DNA of 63,968 bases, counting the filler, from Aduncisulcus paluster (lineage: Eukaryota), in assembly GCA_024181965.1 (NCBI GenBank). It is 10 parts of 10 records of this genome, joined end to end, with 100 filler letters (N's around TTAATTAATTAA, not from the genome) between each part and the next. Parts side by side here need not be neighbours in the genome. Positions count along the whole stretch, not along the records: positions 27,352 to 41,347 come from BQXS01009723.1; 9 more parts are not named here. One strand, given 5' to 3'. Shown in pieces: positions 2,918 to 43,950 of this stretch. The notes under the pieces are model-generated. The model saw only the letters and a program-made list of their open reading frames with translations, ran no database searches and was not told where the DNA came from. A program made the translations under genes and the position numbers. The number at the start of each line of letters is the position of its first letter. Position 1 is the first letter of the stretch.

Positions 2918-3017
2918 NNNNNNNNNNNNNNNNNNNNNNNNNNNNNNNNNNNNNNNNNNNNTTAATTAATTAANNNNNNNNNNNNNNNNNNNNNNNNNNN
3001 NNNNNNNNNNNNNNNNN
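2918..3017. other. Artificial contig linker (N44-TTAATTAATTAA-N44); also at 13463-13562, 19817-19916, 27252-27351, 41348-41447, 44469-44568, 48194-48293, 59256-59355, 62824-62923
   Basis: Identical 100-bp N-flanked stop spacer occurring nine times. Confidence 0.98.
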
Positions 3018-13172: not shown

Positions 13173-13563
13173 GTGATATCAACAAGGCACTTTCAAAACA
13201 ATGGTTATCGGCTCCGCTGGCAGAAACCATAAGCAAATCCAGCATGTCGATGAATCCACTTTTTTCTACTATTTCGGGTGCTAGAGTTACGTGACTTCTC
13301 AGGGTATAACATTTCCGAGCGCCAATAAATTACTAAAGATTCATAAAGTTGATATCAATCCAAACGGTGATCAAAAGAAAGGAAGAAAAAGTGAAAGTTA
13401 ATAATCAATTTTTCTTGTTCATTCATGAAAGAATTAATCGTTAGAATAATATTAATCATTGTNNNNNNNNNNNNNNNNNNNNNNNNNNNNNNNNNNNNNN
13501 NNNNNNTTAATTAATTAANNNNNNNNNNNNNNNNNNNNNNNNNNNNNNNNNNNNNNNNNNNNT

Positions 13564-26385: not shown

Positions 26386-27135
26386 ATGTCAGCAATACAT
26401 CAATATACTCGGACTGGAAGCGATACAATTTCGCTTCAAACTCCTCATTGTATTGTAAGAGATATGATTAGGAAGAATAAGATGTTCTGTATAAATCCAA
26501 CAAAAGGAACTCGGGGAAGAAATGGTATGCCTGGTAAGCCCGGGGGAAATGGAAGAACTCCTATTTTACTTGGAAGAGATGGAACTGATGGTGGCCGTGG
26601 AGGCGATGGACAATGTGGTGGCCGTGGAGGCGATGCATCTGATCTTTGTGTCACTTTGTCTGGTGAATCTCTTGAGGCAATGGGTGTTGAATTGAATGTT
26701 CACATTGAACTTCCTGTCTCACACATTAATGTTCTTGAAACAGGGGACTCAATCATATGTTTTGATGTCTCAGGTGGAAGAGGAGGAGATGGTGGAAGAG
26801 GAGGAGACGGAGGGGATGGAGGAAATGGAGACGAAGGAGCAGAAGGAGCTGTAGGACGTGATGGTGGAAGAGGAGGAGACGGAGGAGATGGTGGAAGAGG
26901 AGGAGACGGAGGGGATGGAGGAAGAGGAGGAGACGCAGCCCTGTGTCGTTTTCGAGTTACTGATCCTAAATTTTTTATGCTCTGTGGTGTGGATTTACGT
27001 GGTGGTGTTGGTGGAGATGGAGCACCTGGAGGATCAGGAGGATATGGAGGAAGAGGTGGACCTGGAGGGAAGAGGAGGAGACGGAGGGGATGGAGGAAAT
27101 GGAGACGAAGGAGCAGAAGGAGCTGTAGGACGTGA
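26386..27135 (+). CDS. Gly-rich GGx-repeat protein (GGRGGDGG); 3' end frameshifted or misassembled
   Basis: GGx triplet blocks separated by short beta-like segments; 26794-26945 repeated out of frame at about 27068-27218. Confidence 0.65.
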   Translation: MSAIHQYTRTGSDTISLQTPHCIVRDMIRKNKMFCINPTKGTRGRNGMPGKPGGNGRTPILLGRDGTDGGRGGDGQCGGRGGDASDLCVTLSGESLEAMGVELNVHIELPVSHINVLETGDSIICFDVSGGRGGDGGRGGDGGDGGNGDEGAEGAVGRDGGRGGDGGDGGRGGDGGDGGRGGDAALCRFRVTDPKFFMLCGVDLRGGVGGDGAPGGSGGYGGRGGPGGKRRRRRGWRKWRRRSRRSCRT

Positions 27136-27351
27136 TGGTGGAAGAGGAGGAGACGGAGGAGATGGTGGAAGAGGAGGAGACGGAGGGGATGGAGGAAGAG
27201 GAGGAGACGCAGCCCTGTAAGAGGTGGACCTTCTGGAGAGAATATACCTGCNNNNNNNNNNNNNNNNNNNNNNNNNNNNNNNNNNNNNNNNNNNNTTAAT
27301 TAATTAANNNNNNNNNNNNNNNNNNNNNNNNNNNNNNNNNNNNNNNNNNNN

Positions 27352-28503
27352 GTGCTATAACAATCGGAAGAATCCTACGCGCAATACAATAGTCTATATA
27401 TTCATCAACTGTGTTGAATTGGGGGAAATCACGAAGCTGCCATCCAGCTATATGTAATTTATCCCGTATAACCTTCAATCCTTCTTTATATAAAGCATAT
27501 GAGGTTGGATATGAGAAAGAGAGGAAAAGAAACGTATGATCAAACGAGGAAGTGGAAATTTGTAAAGGGTATACCACCGATAATTAAAGGATATAGTAGT
27601 AGGATCACCTCGTATCTTCGGGATTGTAACATCATTAACCTCTTTGGAAATGACCTTAATTAAGGATATTATTCTCCTTTTTAGACGTTCGATTGATGGT
27701 AGCTCTATCCTTAAGCCAGCTTTCTTGAAGCCACGATATATTTCTGTATATAGTGATTCACTAATCTCGCGGGTAATCATTTTTTTTATGAACAGAATTG
27801 TCAATTCATCTTTTCCGGCGATTAGTTTACCATATACGTCAATATACTCAACTATAGGTGTGAATTCCATTGATTCGCTACGATCCAGCGATAAAGATGA
27901 GTGGCTTGACTGGAAAGGTTGAAACAATTCTGTAAGAAGGGAATCTGCATCCGCAGATACGCTCTCTGATAATATTTCATCCTCAGGATCATGAGGCTCA
28001 TGAACTATGAAGTCGCTCTCAGATGATGGGACATCTGCACCATACCCAAAGTCATCTTCTAAAGGGGGTAAACTCCCACAGTCTTCTGAAACTTCGTCAA
28101 TAGTGGGAATAATATGTGCTGTTGGAGTACAATATTGTAGAAACACAATTCTCACATCTTCATGTGTAATATCATCATTTCCAACCTGAGGTTGAAGTTG
28201 AACGAGTATATAAGCATGTCGTGGCTCATGAAATGTAAGAAGGAAAAATGTAAATAGTCGATATATATGATCACAATAATAAAACATCTCATTTGGCTCA
28301 GTACAAGAGCATTTCATGTCACAATGTTTCCAGAATCTTCTGTGTCTTCTTTTTTGTCTATGACCAAGTTGATTATGACACGTTTTACAGAGCATGCTCA
28401 CTTTTTTGATTTTCAAACTATCAATGTCGTAAATATCTATAATTGAAAACAAATTTGAAGGTATTAGTATTCCTTGATCAAAAATAAATACTTTTGGTGC
28501 CAT
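27352..28503 (-). mobile_element. Possible CACTA/EnSpm-like transposase N-terminal part, frameshifted near 27480 and cut by contig end
   Basis: ISESLYTEIY...LPSIERLKRRIISL and YKFPLPRLIIRFFS resemble CACTA Tnp2 motifs (LPxS..KK, YFPxxPRLxRxF); no catalytic residues visible. Confidence 0.4.
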
Positions 28504-29135
28504 TAATCGAGTTTGGTTTTGTAGATTAGCAGCAAAAGTCGGATGAAAGTATAAAAAAAGAATTTACTATTATATATCATATTCACGATATATTTCAGGA
28601 TGTTCAGAAGGTAAAATAGTTCTTTTAACAAATTCTTTCCACGTGTCAAGGTCCTTAAAGTGCTCAACGCCATAAAAATATATTCCCCTAATTAACAATG
28701 CTTTTTTAAAATTGAAAATGTCATATTTAAGTCTTTGTGTCTTCTTTTTTGTCTATGACCAAGTTGATTATGACACGTTTTACAGAGCATGCTCACTTTT
28801 TTGATTTTCAAACTATCAATGTCGTAAATATCTATAATTGAAAACAAATTTGAAGGTATTAGTATTCCTTGATCAAAAATAAATACTTTTGGTGCCATTA
28901 ATCGAGTTTGGTTTTGTAGATTAGCAGCAAAAGTCGGATGAAAGTATAAAAAAAGAATTTACTATTATATATCATATTCACGATATATTTCAGGATGTTC
29001 AGAAGGTAAAATAGTTCTTTTAACAAATTCTTTCCACGTGTCAAGGTCCTTAAAGTGCTCAACGCCATAAAAATATATTCCCCTAATTAACAATGCTTTT
29101 TTAAAATTGAAAATGTCATATTTAAGTCTTTGTGT
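28341..29135. repeat. 395-bp head-to-tail tandem duplication
   Basis: 28341-28735 equals 28736-29130; MAPKVFIF starts at 28503 and 28898. Confidence 0.93.
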
Positions 29136-29561
29136 TTCTTTTCTCTTCAAATTGCCATATCTTTCTTTTACCTTGTCCTTAATAAAGTCGTCATAAAATC
29201 TCAGAATTTCTTTTTCATCACATCTTTCAAACACGGTCTTTAAAACTGAATTTCTAGTCAATTCATCTATAATAATTTGTTTTTTTTCTTCAAATAATAA
29301 AATTCGTGGCTGTGTGACCTTCGAAGCATCAAATTCTTTTTTTAATAAAACAAGCAAAAATCTAAAAGAAATAATACTTACCATTCGTTCCACTTCAATC
29401 AAAACATCCTCAGCTAACATTAAAATCGATCTTAAATCTCGTAAAAGCAGTCTAGAAGGGTCTCTTGTTAATATGGGCAAGCCGTCTGAAAATCTTCTCT
29501 TCATGTCTTTTAAATCCTCTCTCATCTCTTGTATCATACTTCTTTCGGTCTCTTCTGGCAT
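28965..29561 (-). CDS. Hypothetical basic protein, co-oriented and closely linked to the putative transposase
   Basis: 198-aa ATG ORF ending 66 bp before the next ATG. Confidence 0.6.
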   Translation of the reverse strand: MPEETERSMIQEMREDLKDMKRRFSDGLPILTRDPSRLLLRDLRSILMLAEDVLIEVERMVSIISFRFLLVLLKKEFDASKVTQPRILLFEEKKQIIIDELTRNSVLKTVFERCDEKEILRFYDDFIKDKVKERYGNLKRKETQRLKYDIFNFKKALLIRGIYFYGVEHFKDLDTWKEFVKRTILPSEHPEIYREYDI

Positions 29562-30711
29562 CGTTGTTCACCAAATAATGTTTTTTTATCGCCAGAAAAA
29601 ATGTGCATTGATGACCTTTTCAAAAGCTAAATTAATCATAAAATATGTTTTTATGAAATAAAAATTCATTGTTATTATCCTCAATCATTGGTATAATAGA
29701 CTTTTCTATATCAGCTAATATAAAGTATTGAGTGCAGGAAAAGTATTATTATTATTTAAAATTCTTAGAATAAATTTCATTTTTTTATTTTATATTTCAC
29801 TTTTATGTATTTTACATGATATACCTATGCGCACAATTTAAACAGTCTTTTTTGTCAACATCATGACTATTAAAGCGGTCTCCCTTGGGTCTGATCAACC
29901 CAGGGGAGGCGTAAGACTTAATATTTTTTATTTATTTTCGTTCCCGCTCCTCCCCCCGATGACCCCCCCTGAATCTGTCTAACAATGTTTAAAAAGGGGG
30001 GGTCCCCAACGATTTTTTATTTTTTTTTGTTTTTTATTAATTAAGATTAAATTTTTATAGGAAAAATAGTAAGGATTTATTATATAACACAATTCTTGCG
30101 TTAAACACATATTTTTAGATGTATAACATATATGTCATCACTACAATATGGAGCGGATTACATATCAGTAAATCTTATGTTTTCCATAATGTTGAACTTA
30201 TGTTTTACTGAAAAAAGAGTTCGTTGTGTATCTTATTCAAGAGCATTTTGAGTAGACATGTCTACTCATTAACATAAAACAACCCAATGAATTCGGTATG
30301 AACGGGCGCATTGTCATTGGTAGTATTGACATTACGAATGGAACAAGAGTCGTGTGGTGGACAAGAACAGGAAGGCACAGGAAATGCAGACCCAGTGGTC
30401 CAATCTGTAAATGGGATCGGAAAATTCCCCCTCTTGACGCGTTGCGCATCCACATCAATGGATACTGACAGCGTGTCTTCCTCTTCCGCATCATCTATTC
30501 CACCGTTCAATTGGTCAGGAGCACACCCCGTGGGAGAAATGGGGACAGCAGAAATAGCAGGGACAATGGGGGAGGATATACCCGAATCGATAGAACCTAT
30601 CCCATATTGGGAAGAATCCAATAGAGAAGATCGGGGGGGGAAAGACGGAGGATATAAAGGACCAAAGGACGGAAGAGAATGAAATGGTTGAAACATGTGC
30701 TCCATGTCTTC

Positions 30712-30798
30712 TGTCATGATTCTCATATGATTCTATTTATAGATCATCAATCCATCTGTATAAACAATAAATTTGGCTTAGTTTATTATTGAGCAACA
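30712..30798 (+). repeat. 5' LTR, 87 bp
   Basis: TGTCATG...GCAACA, identical to 35907-35993; contains TATAAA and AATAAA. Confidence 0.96.
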
Positions 30799-30811
30799 AT
30801 TATATAATTGA

Positions 30812-32881
30812 ATGCCTGATAAAACAGTCAAAAAATTGAAGGAAGAAGAGGAAAAAACCACTATTAAGGCTCCGTTTCTGAAAGAACTTTCAACCGAGGC
30901 ATGGAGCGAATTTATGAGGAACTTTGATCACTATGCATCAATTGGGGGACACCGTAAATGGCCGGAGATTGTTGATCCAGTTGTCCTTAGCCTCATAAAA
31001 GACTTGGCGAAGGTCCCTGACTTCGAAGCGAAATCCCATCATAAGAAGGCGAGAGCGGCGGTAAACGCGATTTTTGCTTCGACTTCAGACATCTCACTAT
31101 ATGACGAACTGGGATTGATTAAGATGAAAAAAGAGCTATCGGTCGACGCTTTATTGGACTACATTAAGCGTTTTAAAGACGTAAGAGGGAGAGCAAAAGG
31201 CTTGGGTACGACGGAGGAGATCGTACAAAGATTTATTGACAATTTAAGTTGTGAGAGACTTAAATGCCGAATCTTGGCGGCGTTGGACACTAAAAAAGCC
31301 GATTTAGCCGAAGTGGTCAGAACGTCAGTCGTTCAAATCAAGATTGTGATCGAAAATGAACTCGAACACAAAGCATTAGAAAGAGAAAAACTTTCATTCA
31401 GTGATGCTGGTAAGGAATGCCACTTCTGTCATGAAATAGGACATATCATGAGAGATTGTCCAAACGGTGGAAAAAGAAGAGTTGGTAGTCGTCCTCTACG
31501 TGGTAGACATGACCGAGGAAGGGGTAGAAGAACCCCATTTATTAAGAACCGGGATACGAGGTACAAGAGGTTTTTCCCGGGCGTGGTCTGTAAGAAGTGT
31601 GGAGAACTGGGTCATTATCCAAGCTCATGCCTTGGAACAAAGTCTAGTGATACCAGTAAAGGAGACCGTAAGTATTTTATCAAGAGTTTTATTCAAAACG
31701 AAAATTCTAGTTTTGCTAGGTATGGCTCTTTATCGTCCGGAAGCAGATCGTTAGACGTTTCGTTTTTGCTAGATAGTGGGGCATCAACCTCTGTTATCTC
31801 CCTGAGATTGGCGTTGGAACTCGGATTTAACAATACGGAAACATCAGACAGAACTGCAGAACTTGGGGACGGATCGCTAGTAACCACACTTGGAAGCATG
31901 GAATTAAAGTGCATGATTCCTGGGTATGACAGAATATCAATAGAATTTGAAGAGCTATTCTGCGTTTTAGAAATGAAGAATCCCTCTTTTGAAGTCCTAC
32001 TTGGCGAGGATTGCATCTTAAATAATAGTCTTTTGGATTGGCAACAGCCTGAAAAAAAGGTTCCGGAAGAAGGCCTGGAAGATGAGCTCGACGACTCTCT
32101 GGTGGGGCTACCCATGTTAGAAGAGGCGACAATGGAGCTTAAAATGGAGGGAACCAAAGAATTTAAAGACGCCCTATTTGATATAATTAAGACTTATGAA
32201 AGTAGGGTGAACAGATTGGAACCAGCTTGTGTCGAGGAGTATACATTGAGATTGAAAGACGGAACAAAGCCCATCGCACAGAAGAGACGTTCCATACCAC
32301 AAGGTTTATTTCTGGAAGTGAAGGACCAGATAACAGAATTGAAAGAAAAGGGTTTCATAAGAGACTCAAAAAGTGAGTTCGCCTCACCTTTGGTATTAGT
32401 TGATAAGAAGGATGGGGGCACACGAGTATGTGTAGACTACAGACTCATTAACAGGTACATAGTGGATGATATGTTTCCCATTCCGAGAATGGACGAGATG
32501 TTTGCAGCTCTGGGAGGTATGAAAGTATTCACTACACTTGATTTAAAAAGTGGGTATTATCAGGTCGCTGTCGAGGAAAGTGTGAGGAAAGTACTAGCTT
32601 TCAATACACCTTTTGGGTTGTTTGAATGGAATAGAATGCCATTCGGCGTAAAGACTGCACCTGGTCACTTTCAGCGGTCAATGAATAAGATATTTCTAGA
32701 TTTGATCGGTCGCTGCTGCTTTATTTATCTAGATGATGTACTTGTGTTCGGTAAGACAGAAAACGAAATGCTAGAGAACCTTAAAATAGTATTGGACAGG
32801 TTGGGAAAATACAACCTCGCATTGAATTACAAGAAATGTAATTTTGGATCAGGTGAAATATCTGGGGTTTCTAGTGGATGA
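30812..32881 (+). CDS. Gag-Pol part 1: gag, two CCHC knuckles, aspartic protease, reverse transcriptase
   Basis: CHFCHEIGHIMRDC, CKKCGELGHYPSSC, LLDSGAS, LDLKSGYYQ, MPFG, YLDD. Confidence 0.97.
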   Translation: MPDKTVKKLKEEEEKTTIKAPFLKELSTEAWSEFMRNFDHYASIGGHRKWPEIVDPVVLSLIKDLAKVPDFEAKSHHKKARAAVNAIFASTSDISLYDELGLIKMKKELSVDALLDYIKRFKDVRGRAKGLGTTEEIVQRFIDNLSCERLKCRILAALDTKKADLAEVVRTSVVQIKIVIENELEHKALEREKLSFSDAGKECHFCHEIGHIMRDCPNGGKRRVGSRPLRGRHDRGRGRRTPFIKNRDTRYKRFFPGVVCKKCGELGHYPSSCLGTKSSDTSKGDRKYFIKSFIQNENSSFARYGSLSSGSRSLDVSFLLDSGASTSVISLRLALELGFNNTETSDRTAELGDGSLVTTLGSMELKCMIPGYDRISIEFEELFCVLEMKNPSFEVLLGEDCILNNSLLDWQQPEKKVPEEGLEDELDDSLVGLPMLEEATMELKMEGTKEFKDALFDIIKTYESRVNRLEPACVEEYTLRLKDGTKPIAQKRRSIPQGLFLEVKDQITELKEKGFIRDSKSEFASPLVLVDKKDGGTRVCVDYRLINRYIVDDMFPIPRMDEMFAALGGMKVFTTLDLKSGYYQVAVEESVRKVLAFNTPFGLFEWNRMPFGVKTAPGHFQRSMNKIFLDLIGRCCFIYLDDVLVFGKTENEMLENLKIVLDRLGKYNLALNYKKCNFGSGEISGVSSG

Positions 32882-34958
32882 GCAGGGTCGAAGGATATCT
32901 CCTGAAAAATTGGATAATCTCAAGAAGGTTAAAAGACCTCAAACGTTGAAAGAAGTTCAGAGCTTCATGGGAAAAATGAATTTCCTTAGAGAGTTTATTC
33001 CACATTTTTCTGTGTTATCAACACCAATATCCGATTTGATTAAAGAGAAAAAACCGGTGAAGTGGAAGAATGAACAAGAAATGGCGTTTAAAAGAATAAT
33101 CAAGGCGTTGGAATTACAACTGACGATTTGTGCACCAAAGTTAGATGGCCAATTTATTCTCCGGACTGACGCATCGAAATTAGGAATTGGTGGGGTTCTC
33201 CTGCAAAAGGAGGGTGAAAAAGAATCCTTAATCTCATTGTTCTCCCGAAAATTCTCAAAAAGAGAACAAAACTGGTCTACTATAGAACAGGAGTGTTTCG
33301 GTATTGTGTTTGGAATTCAGAAGAACAGACATATTCTGGTCGGATCATTTTTTACTGTTGAGACCGATCACAGGAATCTCCAGTTTCTCTTTAAGTCGGA
33401 AGTCCCAAAGCTAGTGAGGTGGCGGATGCAGATTAGCCACTATGCTTTTAGTATCAAACATATAAAAGGTTCAGAGAATGGATTAGCCGATTTTCTCTCG
33501 AGAATCGAAATCTCACAAAGGGATATGATCCCTCAAATGAAGAAAAAATCTGTTCCTTCAGTGGAAAACAAGGTGATTTTACTCTCGGGTGAAAAGGAAA
33601 TTAAAAAGAAAAACGAAGTTTCTGAAGCCCAGAACGTACCGACTAAAGACATTGAAGATAAATGGGAAACACTGAGAATTACTCATAAAACACTGGGACA
33701 TGCAGGCCCTAGTCTGGTGACAAGAGCGTTGAAGAATAGAAATATATCCTGGAAAGGAATGAAAAATGATGCGGAAGAAGTGGTGAAGAAATGTCTTTAT
33801 TGTCAGAAATTAAAAAAGGGAAAAGATCCTATGGTTTTTGGGACAATTAAAGAATCAGAACTCTTTAAAACTATTTCCATCGACACCGTGGGACCGTTAG
33901 AACCTGACAAGAACGGCTATAAATATCTGATGGTGGCTATCTGTAATTTCAGTCGATTCGTATTTATTATCGCACTGCGAACAATGTCTAAAGAAGAAAC
34001 TGCAAGAGCACTGCTGACCAGGATCTTGGCAACTCACGGAGTGCCCCATTGTATTCGATCCGACGGGGGTGGGCAGTTCAAGAACGAATTGTCGGCTGAG
34101 TTATGTAAAATGCTGGGCGTATCCCGAATTATTACAAAACCATATAATCATGAGGAAAATGGGATCGTCGAAAGAGTTAATCGCGAGATAAGGAAACTGA
34201 TTCGAATAGAGAGTATGCAAGAAGACACCCAGGATTACGAGATGTTCGCTGCGCTAGCAGCGTCAGCTCTAAACGCGAGAGTACACTCGGCTACGGGTTT
34301 TGCTCCCCATACGTTGTTATTCGGGTGCAGAAAAAGATTATCCTTGGATCTCTCTGAAAAACCAGAAATACAGAATAGCATCGAACATGAATTTATTAGC
34401 GATTTCGTAAAAAGACACCAGAGAATCACTGCAACGGCAAAAGAGAAGCAGGAAGAAGAAATAATGAAAGAAAAAGAAAAAGTGGTGGACAAAAAGTTTA
34501 AAGTAGGGGAAAAAGTGTTTGTCCGACCTGCAAAAGACATTAGAAGGAAGTCTCAACCTGCTCTCGATGGACCGTTCACGATAATAGAGAAATTATCAGA
34601 CTATCTATATAAAATTGAACCCCTAATAGGTGGACAAGCAAGAGAAATCCCCGTCAGACGACTACGAGAGTATGTAGAAGGAACCGAGACTCCGGAAGAA
34701 ATTAAAGCAGTTGTTGGCAGAGATGAAGAAGAGTTAGTCGTCGAAAAAATACTAAAACATAGATATGGAACAAAAAAGCCGGTGGAATTCAAGGTAAAAT
34801 GGAAAGATTATCCAGTATCTGATTCAACCTGGGAATACTACCAAACGGTTGAAGATTGTGAAGCCTTGGAGAATTATTTAAAAGAAAAACCGAGCTTAAA
34901 TAAGAAATTGGAAGAAAAAAGGTTAAATATAAAGAAAAATAAGGAGATGGAAGAATAG
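32844..34958 (+). CDS. Pol part 2 after frameshift: RT end, RNase H, integrase, chromodomain
   Basis: VKYLG, TDASKLGIGGVL, TDHRNL, ADFLSR, HHCC, DTVGP/SDGG/GIVERVN, GPF, VEKILKHR...VKWKDY...STWE. Confidence 0.97.
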   Translation: MDQVKYLGFLVDEQGRRISPEKLDNLKKVKRPQTLKEVQSFMGKMNFLREFIPHFSVLSTPISDLIKEKKPVKWKNEQEMAFKRIIKALELQLTICAPKLDGQFILRTDASKLGIGGVLLQKEGEKESLISLFSRKFSKREQNWSTIEQECFGIVFGIQKNRHILVGSFFTVETDHRNLQFLFKSEVPKLVRWRMQISHYAFSIKHIKGSENGLADFLSRIEISQRDMIPQMKKKSVPSVENKVILLSGEKEIKKKNEVSEAQNVPTKDIEDKWETLRITHKTLGHAGPSLVTRALKNRNISWKGMKNDAEEVVKKCLYCQKLKKGKDPMVFGTIKESELFKTISIDTVGPLEPDKNGYKYLMVAICNFSRFVFIIALRTMSKEETARALLTRILATHGVPHCIRSDGGGQFKNELSAELCKMLGVSRIITKPYNHEENGIVERVNREIRKLIRIESMQEDTQDYEMFAALAASALNARVHSATGFAPHTLLFGCRKRLSLDLSEKPEIQNSIEHEFISDFVKRHQRITATAKEKQEEEIMKEKEKVVDKKFKVGEKVFVRPAKDIRRKSQPALDGPFTIIEKLSDYLYKIEPLIGGQAREIPVRRLREYVEGTETPEEIKAVVGRDEEELVVEKILKHRYGTKKPVEFKVKWKDYPVSDSTWEYYQTVEDCEALENYLKEKPSLNKKLEEKRLNIKKNKEMEE

Positions 34959-35756
34959 AATTCCAAAACTCGCAATGAGTAAATTATTATAATACAAAAC
35001 ATTAAAATTAAAGAATATTATAAAATATTATTAAAGATTTCCATGGATTACCACTATTTATTATTGTAAATAAGAAGATACGGAGAAAAAAATAATTTCT
35101 TAAATTATAAGAGCATAAAAAAGGTAGCAACATACAGCTGACGAACTATAAAAGAACAAAACCACATGGAACCAAAACGAAATACTCTATACAACGAGAA
35201 TACGGAAGATTGAAAGAGAAAAATACTGAGAAGATTAATTTAGCCTATATCAGGGAAGATATAAGTTGACAAGAGTAATAATAATAATATTGGAATTGAA
35301 ATCCAGAATATTCAGAGAATTATCAATGAAAAAAGCAAAATCATAAAAATTCGAAGAAAAACATAAAACACAATTAAATATGACATTTTAGATAAGAGAT
35401 ATAAAATATACAATTAAAAAGCTCAACATAACCTTCATAAAAACTTATAATAATTAACAAATTGTCAGAAAAGTGGAAAATCTACTCGCCCGTTATGATA
35501 ACATACATTTTCACTAAAAAAAGGGGCTACCCTTTCATTTAGAAGTTATTATTAAACACAATCCACCGAAATAATTTTAAATAATTGAGAAACTCCGTGG
35601 GAACAGAATTTTTGCTAGAAAACTCTGACCGCGATGATTATAAAGAGCTCTATCGCAAGATGAGCTACTATATGACGGATTCTGTTTAATAGGGGGGTAG
35701 AGGAGATAAAATTAGTGATTTTGAGAAAAAAGAGTTCTGGTGTGGTTCATCAAAAT

Positions 35757-35828
35757 TGGGTCCAGCGGGACTTGAACCTAGGACTCTCCTCTCGCAAAGA
35801 AAGGAAAAACCAGTTGAACCATCGAAGG
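35757..35828 (-). pseudogene. tRNA-like sequence with Pol III A and B boxes inside the retrotransposon 3' UTR
   Basis: 72 nt; T8, A14, G18G19, TTTCT/AGGAG stem with loop TTGCGAG, GGTTCAAGTCC; acceptor, D and T stems do not pair. Confidence 0.65.
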
Positions 35829-35896
35829 CTATTTGATAAAAAATATATATTATATTAATTATATAGGATATGATATAAAGAGTGGAATGAAGATCT

Positions 35897-35906
35897 AGGG
35901 GGGTAG
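35897..35906 (+). promoter_or_regulatory. Polypurine tract
   Basis: AGGGGGGTAG abutting the 3' LTR. Confidence 0.85.
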
Positions 35907-35993
35907 TGTCATGATTCTCATATGATTCTATTTATAGATCATCAATCCATCTGTATAAACAATAAATTTGGCTTAGTTTATTATTGAGCAACA
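35907..35993 (+). repeat. 3' LTR, 87 bp
   Basis: Identical to 30712-30798. Confidence 0.96.
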
Positions 35994-37842
35994 TCTTCCG
36001 TCTTCCCAGGAAAGAATGTAGACGTTGAAGGCATGGTAGAGAAATTTCCCATGGTGAAATGGGAAACGTGCAGATTCGCAGCATAATTGTCATCAATGGC
36101 ACACCTTTTGCCAAATAATTTTCTTCCATGTATCGTTGTCCGTTCCCCTTCATCGTGGTAGGACATGGGATTGTGAACATACCTAGATGGTACCGTGGGC
36201 AATATTACACTGGGCTTAAATTAATGAATTGCGAAAAAGACATCGAAAAACGGCCACTTTGATTATATATAAAAAAATTGCCTGATGAAAGGGCTTTTTT
36301 TTGCCTCTCCACTTTTACAGCGACAAAAAACGGCCTAGGAAGCAGAGGTCACCGGAGAGCGGGGAGTACTGAAGACACCTCCGGTGACCTTAATTTTAGA
36401 AAAAAAAGATAGAAAATAAAACGTTAGCTTAAAAAAAAATGAAAAAATAAAACAAAAAATAAAAATTGAAACCTGTTGGTTACTAACCAATCGTACAAAA
36501 GAAATATTTCAGTCGGATATACTGAAAACATGTCGTGCAACCCAAAATCGTAGAATAGAATAGATTTATTAAGTTCAAATAATTTCAAATTTATTTTTAA
36601 AAACATAAAAACTTCTTTCATTTATGGGATACAATCATCTTTTTTATTGGTATAAAATACGTTTTTATATTCACTGAATTAGAATAAATAATAAAAATAT
36701 ATTTCATTTTTATGCAGAAATAATCCAACAATATCTTTGAGTATACACATATAACGAAGCAAAATGTATTTTTGTATCTAGGGTTATCATGAGGATATTT
36801 CAAATAAATTTGTTAGATCATCTATAATATTAACCAATGAATTTATTTTTTATATTATTTCAAATTCGGAAAATTTGGGACACTCTGGTTCTAAAGAACC
36901 TTTACTTAGCTCATTGATAGCCTTTCCCTCAATCTCTTTGACAACTTCTTTTAAATTGTTATTGTGGTTTCTTGCAGCATCATCTATAATAGTGGTTGGT
37001 GTGTTTCCACAACACCGTTTGATAGGAGAAGCTTCACTCAATAAAGAGAGAGGAAGGGGGTGCGGGTCCGGGGTTTCAATAGTAATTACCTCCTCATCCT
37101 TTAATAATGTAGTATCGCATACATGTTACGATATTTAGGATAATATTATGTCAGAGATTCACTAAAACGAAACAATCACCACACCGGCCACATGTGTGAA
37201 GCGGGGTCAATACATGTAGAGAGATCAATATCTCGCACAATTTGCATGACTAGATCACTGTCATCTGATGTTGGCNNNNNNNNNNNNNNNNNNNNAGGGT
37301 TATCATGAGGATATTTCAAATAAATTTGTTAGATCATCTATAATATTAACCAATGAATTTATTTTTTATATTATTTCAAATTCGGAAAATTTGTGACACT
37401 CTGGTTCTAAAGAACCTTTACTTAGCTCATTGATAGCCTTTCCCTCAATCTCTTTGACAACTTCTTTTAAATTGTTATTGTGGTTTCTTGCAGCATCATC
37501 TATAATAGTGGTTGGTGTGTTTCCACAACACCGTTTGATAGGAGAAGCTTCACTCAATAAAGAGAGAGGAAGGGGGTGCGGGTCCGGGGTTTCAATAGTA
37601 ATTACCTCCTCATCCTTTAATAATGTAGTATCGCATACATGTTACGATATTTAGGATAATATTATGTCAGAGATTCACTAAAACGAAACAATCACCACAC
37701 CGTCCACATGTGTGAAGCGGGGTCAATACATGTAGAGAGATCAATATCTCGCACAATTTGCATGACTAGATCACTGTCATCTGATGTTGGCATCCCGAGG
37801 CAAGGATGTTTCTTCTTCATTCTGACTTCTCCACTCTCCTGT

Positions 37843-38380
37843 TTAATCTTCAGATCTCGATTGTGAAGAACTTGTTGAAGATTCATCGTCGGAAGCGGAT
37901 TCCGCAGATTCGGAGTCTTCTTCATCCTTTTGATTGATTGCATATGGAAATCCAATCTGTAAACAAGGTAAAATGAATACCCCCCCAAAAGATATTCTAT
38001 TCAGCGTAAAATATATAGCGAACGCCTCCTTCTCAATCACCATCCAGTTCAGACTCCTTTTTCTTCTCAAGATCACTACGTAATTTAATACAATTACGAT
38101 ATCCAGACCAATGTTTAAATAAATTTTTTACACATTCGAGAAGACTTGACCAGCGAATTTCGAAATGAATGATTGGGGGAAGATCATCAAGAATCTTTTG
38201 TTGAGTTGGTGCTTCCTTCTGCACGCCCAGGAGTTTTGCCACTAATAATACAAATTGTCGGACCTTTTTGAACTTAATTAAGAATAAATCTCTTAATAAA
38301 AAATGAACAGTGGGTTACAACACACCCAAATCCCCGTTCAATCAGACCCTTACAAATGGAAACCATTGCTGCATAGGTTT
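37843..38380 (-). pseudogene. Degenerate hAT-like transposase fragment
   Basis: IHFEIRWSSLLE matches the RWSSLLE motif of neighbouring hAT ORFs. Confidence 0.55.
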
Positions 38381-38623
38381 CCATTTTTTTTCAATGAGCT
38401 GTTTCAATAATTTCATTGCAAAAATGGAATAAAATAAATTACAATAACAGAATAAATATTTTATTATTTGCCCAATTTATAAGTTTATTGAATACTCGAT
38501 AATTTGCATTTTTTTCAGATTTTCTTGATTTGATTCACCTACAAATATTATGAGTAAGTTTGTTATTAATTTATTTAAATGAAGCAATTATTGATTTTAA
38601 TTTAACGTAATAATTGAAATAGT

Positions 38624-40537
38624 TTATTCGACTTCTTGATTTGAATTGAACGTGAAAAAAACATTATTCATAAGCGTATCAGTAGATTGATTGGCACGTA
38701 ATGGTTGATCATATCGACGAACGATACTAAAGAGCCTTTCAATCGAAGCTCCTGACATCGGCAATGACATGAAAATATCTTGGATTCTTTTTAGCCAAAA
38801 AAAGTTATCTTCAATTGAGATATCTTCCTTATCGTTAACTGATTTACAGTATTCTCTTAATTGATCCTTTTCTCGATCTGACAGCTCAATATTTATATGA
38901 CTTATAGATGTTTTTAGTTTGATCTCCTCAATCGTGAAATCATCATCCAGAGGTTAAAACAAATTATTCCATAATATATGCTTAAATTAATCTTTAGAAG
39001 TTTAAATGCTCGTTTGAACGGGGTGGATGTGATTTGACTCGAACACCATTCTGATTCTAGTCTTTCTGCAAACGATGAGATTGATCGAAAAGCTTCAACA
39101 TTGGACATTTTAAATTGGGCACACTTGATTGATTTTAATGCGCACGGAATAAATTCCTTTGTTAATCTTCGTTTAAAGTTTTTGTAGGCTTGATTTTGCA
39201 AAAAAGTTCGACAACCCACAACTTGCTCAGTTGGCGTTTTGAATTTTAAACTTGCAAGAATTTCATCCCATCTTAAATAAATTTTAGAAAACTCTTCTAA
39301 AAGTGACGACCACCGAACCTTCGTATACCTTGGTGGACTAATATCTAAGAGTGCACATAATGTCCGATTTTCCTGCGATCCACTACTTAATACCATATTT
39401 AAATCCTCAAGAAATATTTCTATTTGCTCAAAGAAAAATGAAATATAGTGTTGAATAAGAGTATTAAGAACATGGGCTATGCACGGAACCCACAACTGTC
39501 CGTATCCTTCCTCCACAAGTTGAGAGGCTACGGCAACCATTAGGGGTTCTCTATCGGTTACAATAGATGATATTGATGAGTTCCTTATTCCAATCTCTCT
39601 AAATGCTTCTTTTAAAGAATCACATAAGATATCCGTTGATGATGGTAGAACTTCTTGGATCTTGGCCGGGCAACATGCCAATATCCAAGATATCTCTTTT
39701 ATCATTCTTTTCATTGTATGTTTATCAATATCTGTTCCCCTTTCTTTTACCCCAACTTGAGAATGGCCTTGTGACCAATTCTTCTCAGCCCAAAATGATT
39801 TTTGGATTTCTCTTGAAAAGGCATCCTTAAACATATCATCTTTTTCTTTGCCAACATCAACATATCCAACAGCCTTTGTTACCTTTTTGTTGCTCACAAG
39901 AATGGCCAAAACGTTTTTCCCCCTACTTATGGTCTTATCCAAGATAACCGAATATATTCCAACGAGAGCACTCTTTCGTTCTTCTTCAAGCGATTTTCTA
40001 GCCACACGATGAGAGGTGTCATATAACGTTGATATACTTAATTTAATAGGGGATTTTAAAAACAAATATAAAAAATTAAGTTCTTCTTGCAGTTCAGAAT
40101 CCAGAAATCTAACGATGGCTGGAATGGGGATTCCAGAACTCATTGCCTTTTTAACACAGGTTTCTCTAAATCTTCTTTTATATGGAACAATTTTTTGTTC
40201 TTATCTTTTTTAATGAGATGTCCAAATGAGAATTGTGTCCAAGACTTAATATGTGTGAATGGAATGATCTAATCCCATTCAATTCGACAAAACAGACACA
40301 GCATCTAATAATGGGTTCTGTATCAGTTTCAATGATTCGAAAATTGTCCATAACGTCTATTTTAATTTCATCGAGAACTTCGTCCTTTTTCATGCAATGC
40401 CGGAAACGTCGAATCTGTTTATAAAGTTGCCATATTGGCTTGGATTTGAACTTACCATAGATAGTAGGTACTAATAATTTAATAGTTTGATTTGACATCG
40501 AAAGAACAAAATTGAAATGTGTCATTTTTCGTGTCAA
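38624..40537 (-). mobile_element. hAT-family transposase, frameshifted
   Basis: CxxC...H...H finger (40178-40537), VILDKT, IVTDREP, PCIAH, VRWSS, and LPMSGASIERLFS in another frame near 38726-38765. Confidence 0.85.
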
Positions 40538-41035
40538 TCCATGAACCTGATCTCTTTCATTGTATTATAAAATATATTAAATATTTATTGATATTTATTT
40601 ATTGAATGTTTCAAATATGATAATATAATGATTATCTGAATGGGTGAAAAATCATCCGGAATCTCTGCATTGCTGGTTCCCGGTCAGAAATAATTGATAC
40701 TATTTCTGACTTTTAAATTTCAGACTTTTCAAGCTTATTAACTAATGTTAGAATAACACGGCTGTTGCCAAAAGCAGACGTTTTTATTATTTTCTTTAAG
40801 GGGTATTATTATTGAATATTTAATATATATTTTATAATACGATTTTAATTAATATATTTATTTCGATATTAGAATGTTTATTACTATCTTATTACAGAAG
40901 ATCACATCTGGAAGTTTTTGTGTTCTTTGCAGATCACTTTTTTTACTTCTCTTCGCGCATTTCTTTATTCCCAAATTAATAAATTTGCTCCACCATCATT
41001 ATAAAGGTTATTAAACCAACAATAATATTATTGTT

Positions 41036-41347
41036 ATGCCAAGCCCCACGACCAATATTACCTCATCTCGTGTCGAAGTTCCTACTTTAAAGGAGTATTC
41101 TTTGAAAAATTTGACCGAATTTTTTACTCGTTACGAGGCTTACAAAGCTGATCCCTCTGTTATCAGACCAACTCAATGGCATCGACTTTTCGATCCTCCT
41201 CTTTTGGCCGCACTACAACTCGTAACAGGTATAAAAACAATTTCTAATGAGTCTGAGCTAGCCGAATTTAAGAAAAAGCTCATTGAATTAGATGCCCCTT
41301 CCTCGTCATTTGACCTACACACGGAATTATCGGTCATCCATATGGAA
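41036..41347 (+). mobile_element. Gag N-terminus of a third gypsy-like element, cut by contig end; candidate 5' LTR about 40746-41021
   Basis: VPTLKEYSLKNLTEFFTRYEAY parallels APFLKELSTEAWSEFMRNFDHY and APMLTKFSKEDYFRFKTEFKKY of the other two gags; DLHTELSVIHM parallels SLYDELGLIKM. Confidence 0.75.
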
Positions 41348-41447
41348 NNNNNNNNNNNNNNNNNNNNNNNNNNNNNNNNNNNNNNNNNNNNTTAATTAAT
41401 TAANNNNNNNNNNNNNNNNNNNNNNNNNNNNNNNNNNNNNNNNNNNN

Positions 41448-41668
41448 ACACGAACGGGTCTGAGAGTGTTGTTTGCTTAAATAATAGTTGTTTGTTTACG
41501 CCAAGAGAATGATCACGAAGAGGAGAACAGGGTTTCGGCCATGAGATGACCTCTTCAAGTGAGAGGAGGATGTGGTGACCATTCTCAGGGACATTCTAAA
41601 AATAGATTGGTTCGCTCGAGATCTGTTTATTAATAAATTGGACCGCATTATAGTTTAGTTTGGCCACA
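41448..41668. repeat. Dispersed repeat, LTR-like end (...TTGGCCACA), truncating gypsy element 2; second copy 44816-45030
   Basis: About 215 bp near-identical on two contigs with the same right boundary. Confidence 0.85.
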
Positions 41669-43950
41669 AAAGCTTTGTTCATTTCGTCAGTCCAGGCGAA
41701 CTCCACAGATACCTTGGTACCTTTAGTCAATACAGCCATCTTATCTTGAAAAGATGGGATGAAGTTTCGATAATAGTTCACAAGGCCACACAACGAACGT
41801 AATTGTTTCTTACTTTCTGGGGGTTTCAAATTCAGTACATCCTGAAACCTTGATGGGGAAATTGTTATTCCATTTCTTGAAACCAATCTACCCAAATATT
41901 CTACACTCTCAACTCCGAAATAGCACTTCTCTGCCTTCACTCTCAACCTCAACTCCTTCAATCTCTTTAAAACCATCTTTGTTCGTTCCAGTAACTCATC
42001 TTTCGTCTTTCCCCCAATTACGATATCGTCAATATATACCTGACATATGGTGGGTATCAAATCACCCAAAGCCTTCGACAACTCTTTCTGGAAGTGAGCT
42101 GGAGCAATTTTCAGCCCAAACGGCATCCTTAAATACTCATATAAACCTCCAGGGACAACAAAAGCCGTGTATTTACGACTGCCTTCCTCAATCATGATTT
42201 GATTAAAGCCAGAGCGCAAATCCAAACTCGTGAAATAGTTTAAGCCTCCCAAGCTGCTCAACATCTCCTCAACATTGGGCAATGGGAACGGAACATTCTT
42301 CATTATTTCATTTATCGCTGTATAATCGTTACATACACGATAATCGCCACTTCTCTTCTTTGCCATTGTCACCGGAGAAGCGTATTCTGAATCGCTTCGC
42401 TGTAATAGTCCATCTTTCAATCCAATTCTTACTGTGTCATCAACAACCTTCCGTAATGGTGGAGAAAGTCTCCGTGGCTTGCTGACAATTACTTTCGATG
42501 TGTCAGTAAGTTCGATAGTCAACGGTTCCAGTGCACAACCTTCCCTTGGCAGTGTTGGATCAAACACTTCCGCAAATTCCGTCGCAATAGCTAAACCATC
42601 CTCTTCAAAATCCGATCCAAAAGTGATCTTCTTAATCTCGTCTACAGCTGGACCGTTCAATACTTCGGTTTTCTCCATAAACATTTCTTCATCTTGCGGT
42701 GCGATTTCTTCCGTGTCACGTTTTCCTATTAGTGTCTTCACGATACCAGTTTCAATACACCAATTGGCTCCTATGATCATTTCTTCATCCTTCACGATAT
42801 CACTCTTGATCACCATGATAGGAGCTGTAACCTCATCGGCTGTGACAATGTTGGTTGCAGTAAGCATCACCCTATATGCTTCTGTGTGTTTTTCTTCCTT
42901 TCCATCAAACCTCACGACAATAGGTTTATCCAATTGTGTAGACTCAGGATTTAATGCTTCTATCAAACGAGAAGTCATCATATTAACTTGACATCCCGTA
43001 TCGATTAGTGCTTTGACTGGCCTTTGGTTCGTGTCACTCTTTACATATCCTTCAACATAAATGTCATCGTTATAGGCACCTTCCGATTTACTGGAAATCA
43101 GCTTAGGCTTAAAAAGAGCAGATGCCATAATCACGGAGTCATCTTCTTTCACCACTCTCTTCGGTCTCAACTCAGGGAACTGTTTCCAGCATCTTTCATC
43201 GGGGTGTTTGCCCCCACAGTATTTACATGACAACTTACTCCAATCCTGATGGGGCTCCCTTCGTCTTCCTTGTGGGTTCATGCTCCTTCGATCCCCTTTT
43301 GTAGCAGACAGAGTAGGCTCCCTCTTAGCGCTTTGTTTCTTCTTGGTTCCCGTATAGATCAATTTTTTCGCCTTGTCCATCGTTTTCTGGAACTTCAATG
43401 CTTCCTTGGCTAGTGTTTTCACTTCGGTTACACCATCGGTGATGAGCTCCATGGTTCTGTCCCTCGTTGAGAAGACAAAAATACCCTTAGCGAAGATCCT
43501 CGCGATATTTTCCTTGTGACCCTCTATAACATCCTCATTGTGGCTCACAGTGACCAAGAACTTGCCAATATACTCACGTAGGTCTTCTATCTTAAATCCA
43601 TGGCGCATTTTCAACGCTCTTAGCTCCTCGTACACATCTGTTTCAGTTTCGCAGGAAAAGTGCTTATCTAAAGAATTAAACAGGTCTTTTTCATTGAAAT
43701 TGTCGACCTCGACTTCGATTAACAGGGCAACTTCTTCTTTAACTCTAGATTGCGGTTTCGCTTTGCCACCATCGCTTTTGTACTTTTTGAACTCAGTTTT
43801 AAATCTAAAATAATCTTCTTTTGAAAATTTTGTCAGCATTGGGGCTTTTAAAACTGAAGCTTCGGTTCTGGTCGTGATTGGAATGTCACTGACCAATTCT
43901 TCCAAACTCTTGGACGTAATTTCGAATTTCTTCTCGGCAGTTCTTTGCAA
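41669..43950 (-). mobile_element. Second Ty3/gypsy gag-protease-RT ORF, truncated before RNase H
   Basis: CKYCGGKHPDERC, LIDTGC, LDLRSGFNQ, MPFG, YIDD, KCYFGVESVEYLG. Confidence 0.95.

Follow-up and report, generated by a model that had tools for sequence, protein, structure and literature searches.

We consider it likely, on balance, that a 72-nt tRNA-like stretch on the minus strand of an Aduncisulcus paluster Ty3/gypsy chromovirus (35757-35828) is a fragment, now decayed, of a tRNA gene or tRNA-derived repeat, carried as an antisense passenger in the 3' tail of the element, and that it is neither a tRNA nor a primer-binding site (PBS), with no selection evident. The evidence comes from a stretch of 63,968 nucleotides of assembly GCA_024181965.1 (hereafter, the window), which was made by joining contigs with N44-TTAATTAATTAA-N44 linkers (e.g. 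2918-3017, 13463-13562, 27252-27351 and 41348-41447) and which also holds 20-N gaps. Because the window is not continuous genome, distances across linkers or gaps mean nothing. The contig bearing the chromovirus covers 27352-41347.

The host element and its 3' tail

The chromovirus occupies 30712-35993 on the plus strand and is complete, as judged from its Pfam domains, its LTRs, its target-site duplication (TSD) and its polypurine tract (PPT). The two plus-strand LTRs are 87 bp long and 100% identical (5' LTR, 30712-30798, TG...CA; 3' LTR, 35907-35993), and they are bordered by the 5-bp TSD TCTTC at 30707-30711 and 35994-35998. Two plus-strand ORFs lie between them in different frames. The first (30812-32881) encodes gag with a zinc knuckle, protease and reverse transcriptase, and the second (32844-34958) encodes RNase H, integrase and a chromodomain; the Pfam matches were RVT_1 (5.8e-32), RT_RNaseH (1.3e-29), rve (9.9e-13), Chromo (4.7e-12), zf-CCHC and Asp_protease_2. 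A related contig differs by a 5-letter indel at 32847 that alters the frame relation of the two ORFs, so that this copy alone may have the two ORFs split. The closest protein relatives of pol come from the metamonad A. paluster itself, at 40% identity. When the element and one TSD copy were removed in silico (joining 29600-30711 to 35999-37275), a 223-aa minus-strand open segment spanned the junction, which suggests that the element inserted into an ORF.

The second ORF is followed by a non-coding, A-rich 3' tail of 948 nt (34959-35906, plus strand), which holds the tRNA-like stretch. We found no ORFs in this tail under the standard code. We also considered an alternative genetic code (table 6), under which pol extends only to 35141, through three in-frame TAA/TAG codons, and so ends short of the tRNA-like stretch. 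This candidate was rejected: the main ORFs are free of reassigned stops, and thus the standard code fits. The tail ends in the plus-strand PPT, TAGGGGGGTAG (35896-35906), which abuts the 3' LTR. A second exact copy of this 11-mer is found on the plus strand at 35690-35700, with 56 nt between it and the tRNA-like stretch downstream. The two copies, 206 nt apart, flank the stretch, and the doubling may reflect either an additional site of plus-strand priming or a duplication scar. Upstream of the first copy, the arms of an inverted repeat (15 nt, 93% complementary, 112 nt between arms) lie at 35550-35564 and 35677-35691. We rejected a relic third LTR, either between the upstream PPT copy and the tRNA-like stretch (in the order PPT, LTR, PBS) or elsewhere in the tail, as the scores of alignments to the LTR were reached by 548 of 1000, 62 of 300 and 97 of 300 shuffles.

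Two other features of the window are recorded here. A second Ty3/gypsy gag-protease-reverse transcriptase region lies on the minus strand at approximately 41668-43863, on a short separate contig, and has 26-32% protein identity to the first; its contig ends before any 3' tail. At 26386-27250, long GGA/GAT-type repeats with a 9-nt period encode a Gly/Asp/Arg-rich ORF, part of which is duplicated as a 151-nt block. Our literature search found nothing joining Aduncisulcus with retrotransposons and, in the portions of the literature available to us, no comparable antisense tRNA-like stretch by the PPT of an LTR retrotransposon.

Anatomy of the tRNA-like stretch

The stretch was described in an initial annotation as a 72-nt antisense element with tRNA-like promoter boxes but unpaired stems, about 70 bp upstream of the PPT, and this description was borne out. 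The letters quoted there are found on the minus strand at 35757-35828, 67 nt from the PPT and 79-150 nt upstream of the 3' LTR. In the cloverleaf register of that annotation, an A-box or D-loop-like motif, TGGTTCAACTGG, takes up tRNA positions 8-19 (35810-35821, minus strand), and a B-box or T-loop-like motif, GGTTCAAGTCC, takes up positions 51-61 (35768-35778, minus strand). The B box is perfect, and the offset of 43 nt between the two is that of a tRNA. A run of five T residues, similar to a Pol III terminator, is indeed present on the minus strand at 35805-35809 (tRNA positions 20-24).

The stems are as poorly paired as had been stated, with three of seven pairs in the acceptor stem, one of four in the D stem and three of five in the T stem. 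The sole stem that pairs is that of the anticodon-arm-like hairpin TTTCT / TTGCGAG / AGGAG (35786-35802, minus strand), which is present in the MFE fold; all five of its pairs form (two of them G-T), and its TTGCGAG loop has T33 and a purine at position 37. The 3' 22 nt (35757-35778, minus strand) correspond to the T loop, the 3' strands of the T and acceptor stems and the discriminator A. Past this terminal A, the minus strand reads ATTTTG, without CCA, so that a T4 run lies directly 3' of the tRNA-like end; the sense strand at this end is AAT-T-GGGTCCA. G+C content within the tail also peaks at the stretch, at 0.50 as compared with 0.17-0.40 in the remaining 60-nt bins.

The stretch is not a tRNA

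ARAGORN found no tRNA genes in the whole window, and the tRNA-like stretch was still uncalled when the thresholds were lowered to 60% (-ps60). At a 70% threshold there were 209 calls in the window, none of which was the 72-nt stretch; the sole call within 35600-35999 sits elsewhere, at approximately 35857-35933. In Rfam there was no tRNA match at the gathering score, and none at E<=10 either on 801 bases or on 96 bases. We also built our own tRNA covariance model from 20 bacterial and phage tRNAs and ran it without filters. The stretch was ranked first in the window by this model, at 12.3 bits, with an E-value of 0.41 and a shifted 5' end. The covariance-model check that the initial annotation had proposed therefore gave no significant score at 35757-35828 with either model. 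In addition, the stretch folds no better than its shuffled versions (minus strand, z of -0.53; plus strand, z of +0.11). Matching 5' stem strands were absent within 35000-36600, and a split or permuted tRNA gene is accordingly unsupported. A tRNA gene was thus rejected as a candidate, since the stretch stays below the cloverleaf and covariance thresholds and only one of its four stems pairs.

Probable traces of tRNA ancestry in the primary sequence

The primary sequence is probably tRNA-derived, chiefly in its 3' two thirds, as is suggested by several comparisons of modest significance. We searched the window with a sequence-only profile (nhmmer) of 21 tRNAs, from which those sharing the 3' end of the stretch had been left out. 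The stretch was first among the nine listed matches on both strands (128 kb), with an E-value of 0.044 and 10.0 bits, and it was aligned in register with the 3' half of the tRNA (profile positions 34-74). When the profile was run on 80 chromovirus loci, nothing as good was obtained (best match, 9.0 bits, E 0.62).

The 3' 22-mer has exact matches in four prokaryote genomes, and all four are the 3' ends of tRNA-Lys genes called by ARAGORN. The identity stops exactly at the discriminator, after which the called genes end in CCA (three) or CC (one). Given that the four genomes belong to one bacterial lineage, they count for roughly one event, and the near-universal T-loop makes up half of the 22-mer. 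In a viral collection there was one exact match to the 22-mer, at the edge of a tRNA-rich contig, where ARAGORN made no call. In a blastn search of a phage collection, the best 10 places were all annotated tRNA genes (nine tRNA-Pro and one tRNA-Lys), each with an E-value of 3-9. The best of these matches is 83% identical over 40 nt, running from the anticodon stem into the T arm, and all of them were seeded by the shared T-loop; the resemblance to tRNA-Pro runs through the variable region. The corresponding search of a plasmid collection gave five short matches, none under a listed feature, in PLSDB tables that list no RNA genes.

The two boxes were assessed against consensus motifs. If up to one mismatch is allowed, 1.04 B boxes are expected per window by chance; the site at 35768-35778 alone in the window matches the consensus perfectly. 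Under a looser consensus, six B-box-like sites are present in the window, and only 35768-35778 has an A-box-like motif at tRNA spacing; the joint expectation for the two boxes is 6 x 0.0038 = 0.023 per window. The stretch was singled out by eye in a very large scan; in a scan of that size, such values alone are expected by chance somewhere. At this modest significance, the profile score, the 22-mer and the joint boxes support the captured tRNA that had been proposed as the origin of the stretch.

Copy number and conservation

Read depth was taken from the one DNA run that contains the stretch, possibly the source of the assembly. The segment 34277-35936, which includes the tail, is on one contig at a depth of 1226.9, compared with 1227.3 for the unique flank, and is therefore single-copy; no other contig at least 80% alike over the tail is present in this run. 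The LTR, the 5' part of gag and parts of the reverse transcriptase showed approximately 3-7 times the depth of the unique flank in the same run. This difference indicates that related elements are present in the genome, none of them with this tail. A second run of the sample, which we guessed to be RNA, has no contig over the 3' tail, and this says nothing on expression.

A blastn search of the element against the window returned only the element itself, its LTRs and one 76-nt match at 75%. No metagenome relatives were confirmed from a single protein query. With a 5-sequence alignment, we collected 80 distant chromovirus loci from metagenomes, many of which end before the 3' tail; these gave no ARAGORN tRNAs and no antisense tRNA-like match downstream of pol. 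We found neither a repeat family nor a target duplication around the tRNA-like stretch. Conservation in other copies, which the initial annotation had asked about, was therefore not seen in any of the 80 distant relatives or in any contig at least 80% alike over the tail. The same annotation held that the stretch had been kept as a functional element. This is not what the data suggest: there is no covariance score, no sibling carries the stretch and the tail is single-copy. Lack of a covariance score together with absence from sibling elements is the outcome that was named there as counting against the proposal, and it is largely what we observed, as far as it is applicable.

A decayed passenger as the best explanation

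On the account that we favor, the source would have been a tRNA gene, a pseudogene or a tRNA-derived repeat, probably acquired at the DNA level. The discriminator is followed directly by a T-run and not by CCA, which argues for a gene-type source rather than read-through into a mature primer tRNA. The stretch would then have lost three of its four stems while keeping a tRNA-like primary sequence, and it would be copied along whenever this young chromovirus copy is copied. That it has no function is what we infer from this one copy. It resembles tRNA pseudogenes and tRNA-derived repeats in its A- and B-box sequence, its tRNA register, its lost pairing, the lack of a call by a tRNA finder and the lack of CCA; it differs from them in its place, antisense within the internal part of an LTR retrotransposon and 67 nt away from the PPT.

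Some observations sit less easily with a passenger. The 3' 22 nt look intact and their pairing partners do not, a pattern that neutral decay does not predict. In addition, a random passenger leaves unexplained the two flanking PPT 11-mers, the G+C peak and the PBS-like orientation.

We also considered the possibility that the resemblance arose by chance, from a G+C-richer patch of the tail in which a T-loop-like 11-mer and a D-loop-like 12-mer happen to lie at the right spacing. Neither covariance model gave a significant score, the profile E-value is only 0.044, the joint expectation is 0.023 per window, very many windows were scanned, and the individual phage matches have E-values of 3-9, all of which is consistent with chance. 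However, the boxes at tRNA spacing share one 72-nt frame with an anticodon-like stem that is fully paired and accompanied by T33 and a purine at position 37. The likeness to tRNA-Pro continues through the variable region, and the 22-mer equals real tRNA 3' ends and stops at the discriminator. Moreover, tRNA-derived relics are common in eukaryote genomes. As the figures are modest and the stretch was picked by eye from a large scan, we retain chance as an explanation, although a rather unlikely one.

A possible 3' tRNA-annealing site

Two elements of the same superfamily offer a precedent for a different reading. According to the available part of PMC5371799, Ty3 uses a bipartite PBS; the 3' portion lies in U3, where the T and D arms of the primer tRNA pair with it. 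In Drosophila gypsy, as far as the available text of PMC1635307 describes it, there is an 11-nt 3' PBS with complementarity to the anticodon and T stems; it anneals tRNA-Lys,2 and bridges the 5' and 3' RNAs in vitro. By analogy, the sense RNA of the present element might carry a 3' tRNA-annealing site, with priming taking place elsewhere. The T arm and 3' acceptor strand of a host tRNA would anneal to 35757-35781, and perhaps its D arm to 35810-35821. Placed there, near the 3' terminus of the genomic RNA, the tRNA would bridge the RNA ends, or would help strand transfer or packaging.

The orientation fits this reading, as the sense RNA is complementary to a tRNA, and so does the position upstream of the 3' LTR. 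The best-kept parts, namely the 3' 22-25 nt and the D-loop region, are the parts that would be used, and the element has no 5' TGG site. However, no second antisense-tRNA piece of significance is present in the 152 nt downstream of the 5' LTR: the best piece there, an A/G-rich run, had a score of 22 against a null of 16.0 +/- 2.6, which was reached by 18 of 500 shuffles. These 152 nt also showed no complementarity (468 of 500 shuffles reached the score), and the stretch is not conserved. On the available descriptions, the Ty3 and gypsy sites are short (approximately 11-20 nt), whereas the present stretch is in register over a whole tRNA length, and the gypsy 3' site is dispensable for cDNA synthesis (PMC1635307). 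Therefore, we regard an annealing site of this kind as improbable.

The likeness to Ty3 and gypsy, as far as those sources go, lies in a tRNA-complementary sequence near the 3' end of the sense RNA, which involves the T and D arms in Ty3 and the anticodon and T stems in gypsy. The sites in those elements are complementary to a known primer tRNA and are accompanied by a 5' PBS by U5. The present stretch is of tRNA length and has no 5' PBS to accompany it. A working 3' tRNA-docking site between two PPT copies, in a chromovirus without a classical 5' TGG site, would be a still less probable conclusion. If it were true, the bipartite-PBS principle would extend to nearly the whole length of a tRNA, and tRNA capture would be tied to an unconventional route of priming or strand transfer. 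It would also bear on how chromoviruses without a TGG primer site start reverse transcription.

Pol III and primer-binding readings

The initial annotation had also proposed a TFIIIC site or an antisense promoter. In this reading, an extra TFIIIC site or an antisense Pol III promoter would act as a chromatin boundary, as a lure for tRNA-targeting elements or as the source of a short antisense RNA. The only perfect B box in the window, the A-box-like motif 43 nt upstream of it and the T4 run straight after the tRNA-like 3' end agree with this proposal. However, Pol III terminates at T-runs, and the T5 at tRNA positions 20-24 would stop the transcript after approximately 25 nt, so that the stretch has the box spacing of a type-2 Pol III gene and lacks a terminator-free unit (T5 at 35805-35809). 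In addition, chance alone should give about one B box per window when a single mismatch is allowed, and there is no conservation, as the tail is single-copy and none of the 80 relatives has the stretch. An antisense Pol III gene is hard to square with the T5, and we consider either role improbable.

Cassandra-type LTR elements carry a Pol III gene-like 5S RNA sequence in their LTRs, conserved across many copies and species. The present element is similar in being an LTR retroelement with a Pol III gene-like module that has internal promoter boxes. In contrast to the conserved module in the Cassandra LTR, the module here exists in one copy outside the LTR and is decayed and interrupted by T5.

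The missing PBS noted in the initial annotation was confirmed: past the end of the 5' LTR at 30798 there is no primer site of the TGG type. The 13 letters after the LTR, ATTATATAATTGA, are A/T only, and the gag ATG follows at 30812. A perfect 14-nt palindrome, CAATTATATAATTG, straddles the boundary of the 5' LTR with the internal region (30797-30810). Self-priming of the Tf1 type was rejected: no complement of the post-LTR letters is present in the LTR upstream of the border, and the only matches to these letters are the 14-nt palindrome of the border itself and one A/T 9-mer at 35857.

A displaced PBS, in which a tRNA annealed at 35757 onward would prime minus-strand DNA in place of a 5' PBS, had been suggested as compensation. 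The claimed complementarity of the sense strand to a tRNA 3' end holds for the 22 nt inward from the discriminator; it fails for CCA, since AAT stands where TGG should pair, and the TGG form is matched only with three mismatches. In the canonical scheme by which LTR elements are reverse transcribed, the position of the U5 border follows from where the primer has its 3' end, which means that the primer of this copy anneals at 30799 onward and not 5 kb away. Although the 5' LTR has no TGG site downstream, the stretch lies 4.96 kb downstream of the 5' LTR end and does not adjoin U5, and priming there cannot give two identical 87-bp LTRs, the 5' one ending at 30798, together with a 5-bp TSD. The geometry (30799 as against 35757) and the missing CCA complement thus contradict this proposal, and we judge it to have almost no chance of being correct.

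A missing TGG site needs no compensation, given that the Skipper chromoviruses of dictyostelids also lack a canonical TGG PBS and, in the available part of their description, have an unknown mode of priming (PMC5006619). Skipper and the present element are alike, on that description, in being protist chromoviruses with a chromodomain integrase and no TGG after the 5' LTR (PMC5006619). They differ in that Skipper has a polypyrimidine stretch after the LTR, whereas the A/T-only 13-mer found here forms the 14-nt palindrome with the LTR end; the portion of the description that we found mentions no tRNA-like stretch in Skipper (PMC5006619).

Implications

If the stretch is tRNA-derived debris, as we favor, it is an ordinary object in a slightly unusual place, and it matters little in itself. 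It does call for caution: look-alikes of A and B boxes that have no cloverleaf or conservation and that contain an internal T-run should not be taken for Pol III genes or primer sites. The host element is of more interest than the stretch, as a chromovirus whose LTRs are just 87 bp long, which lacks a recognisable primer site and which has a palindrome across the U5 border.
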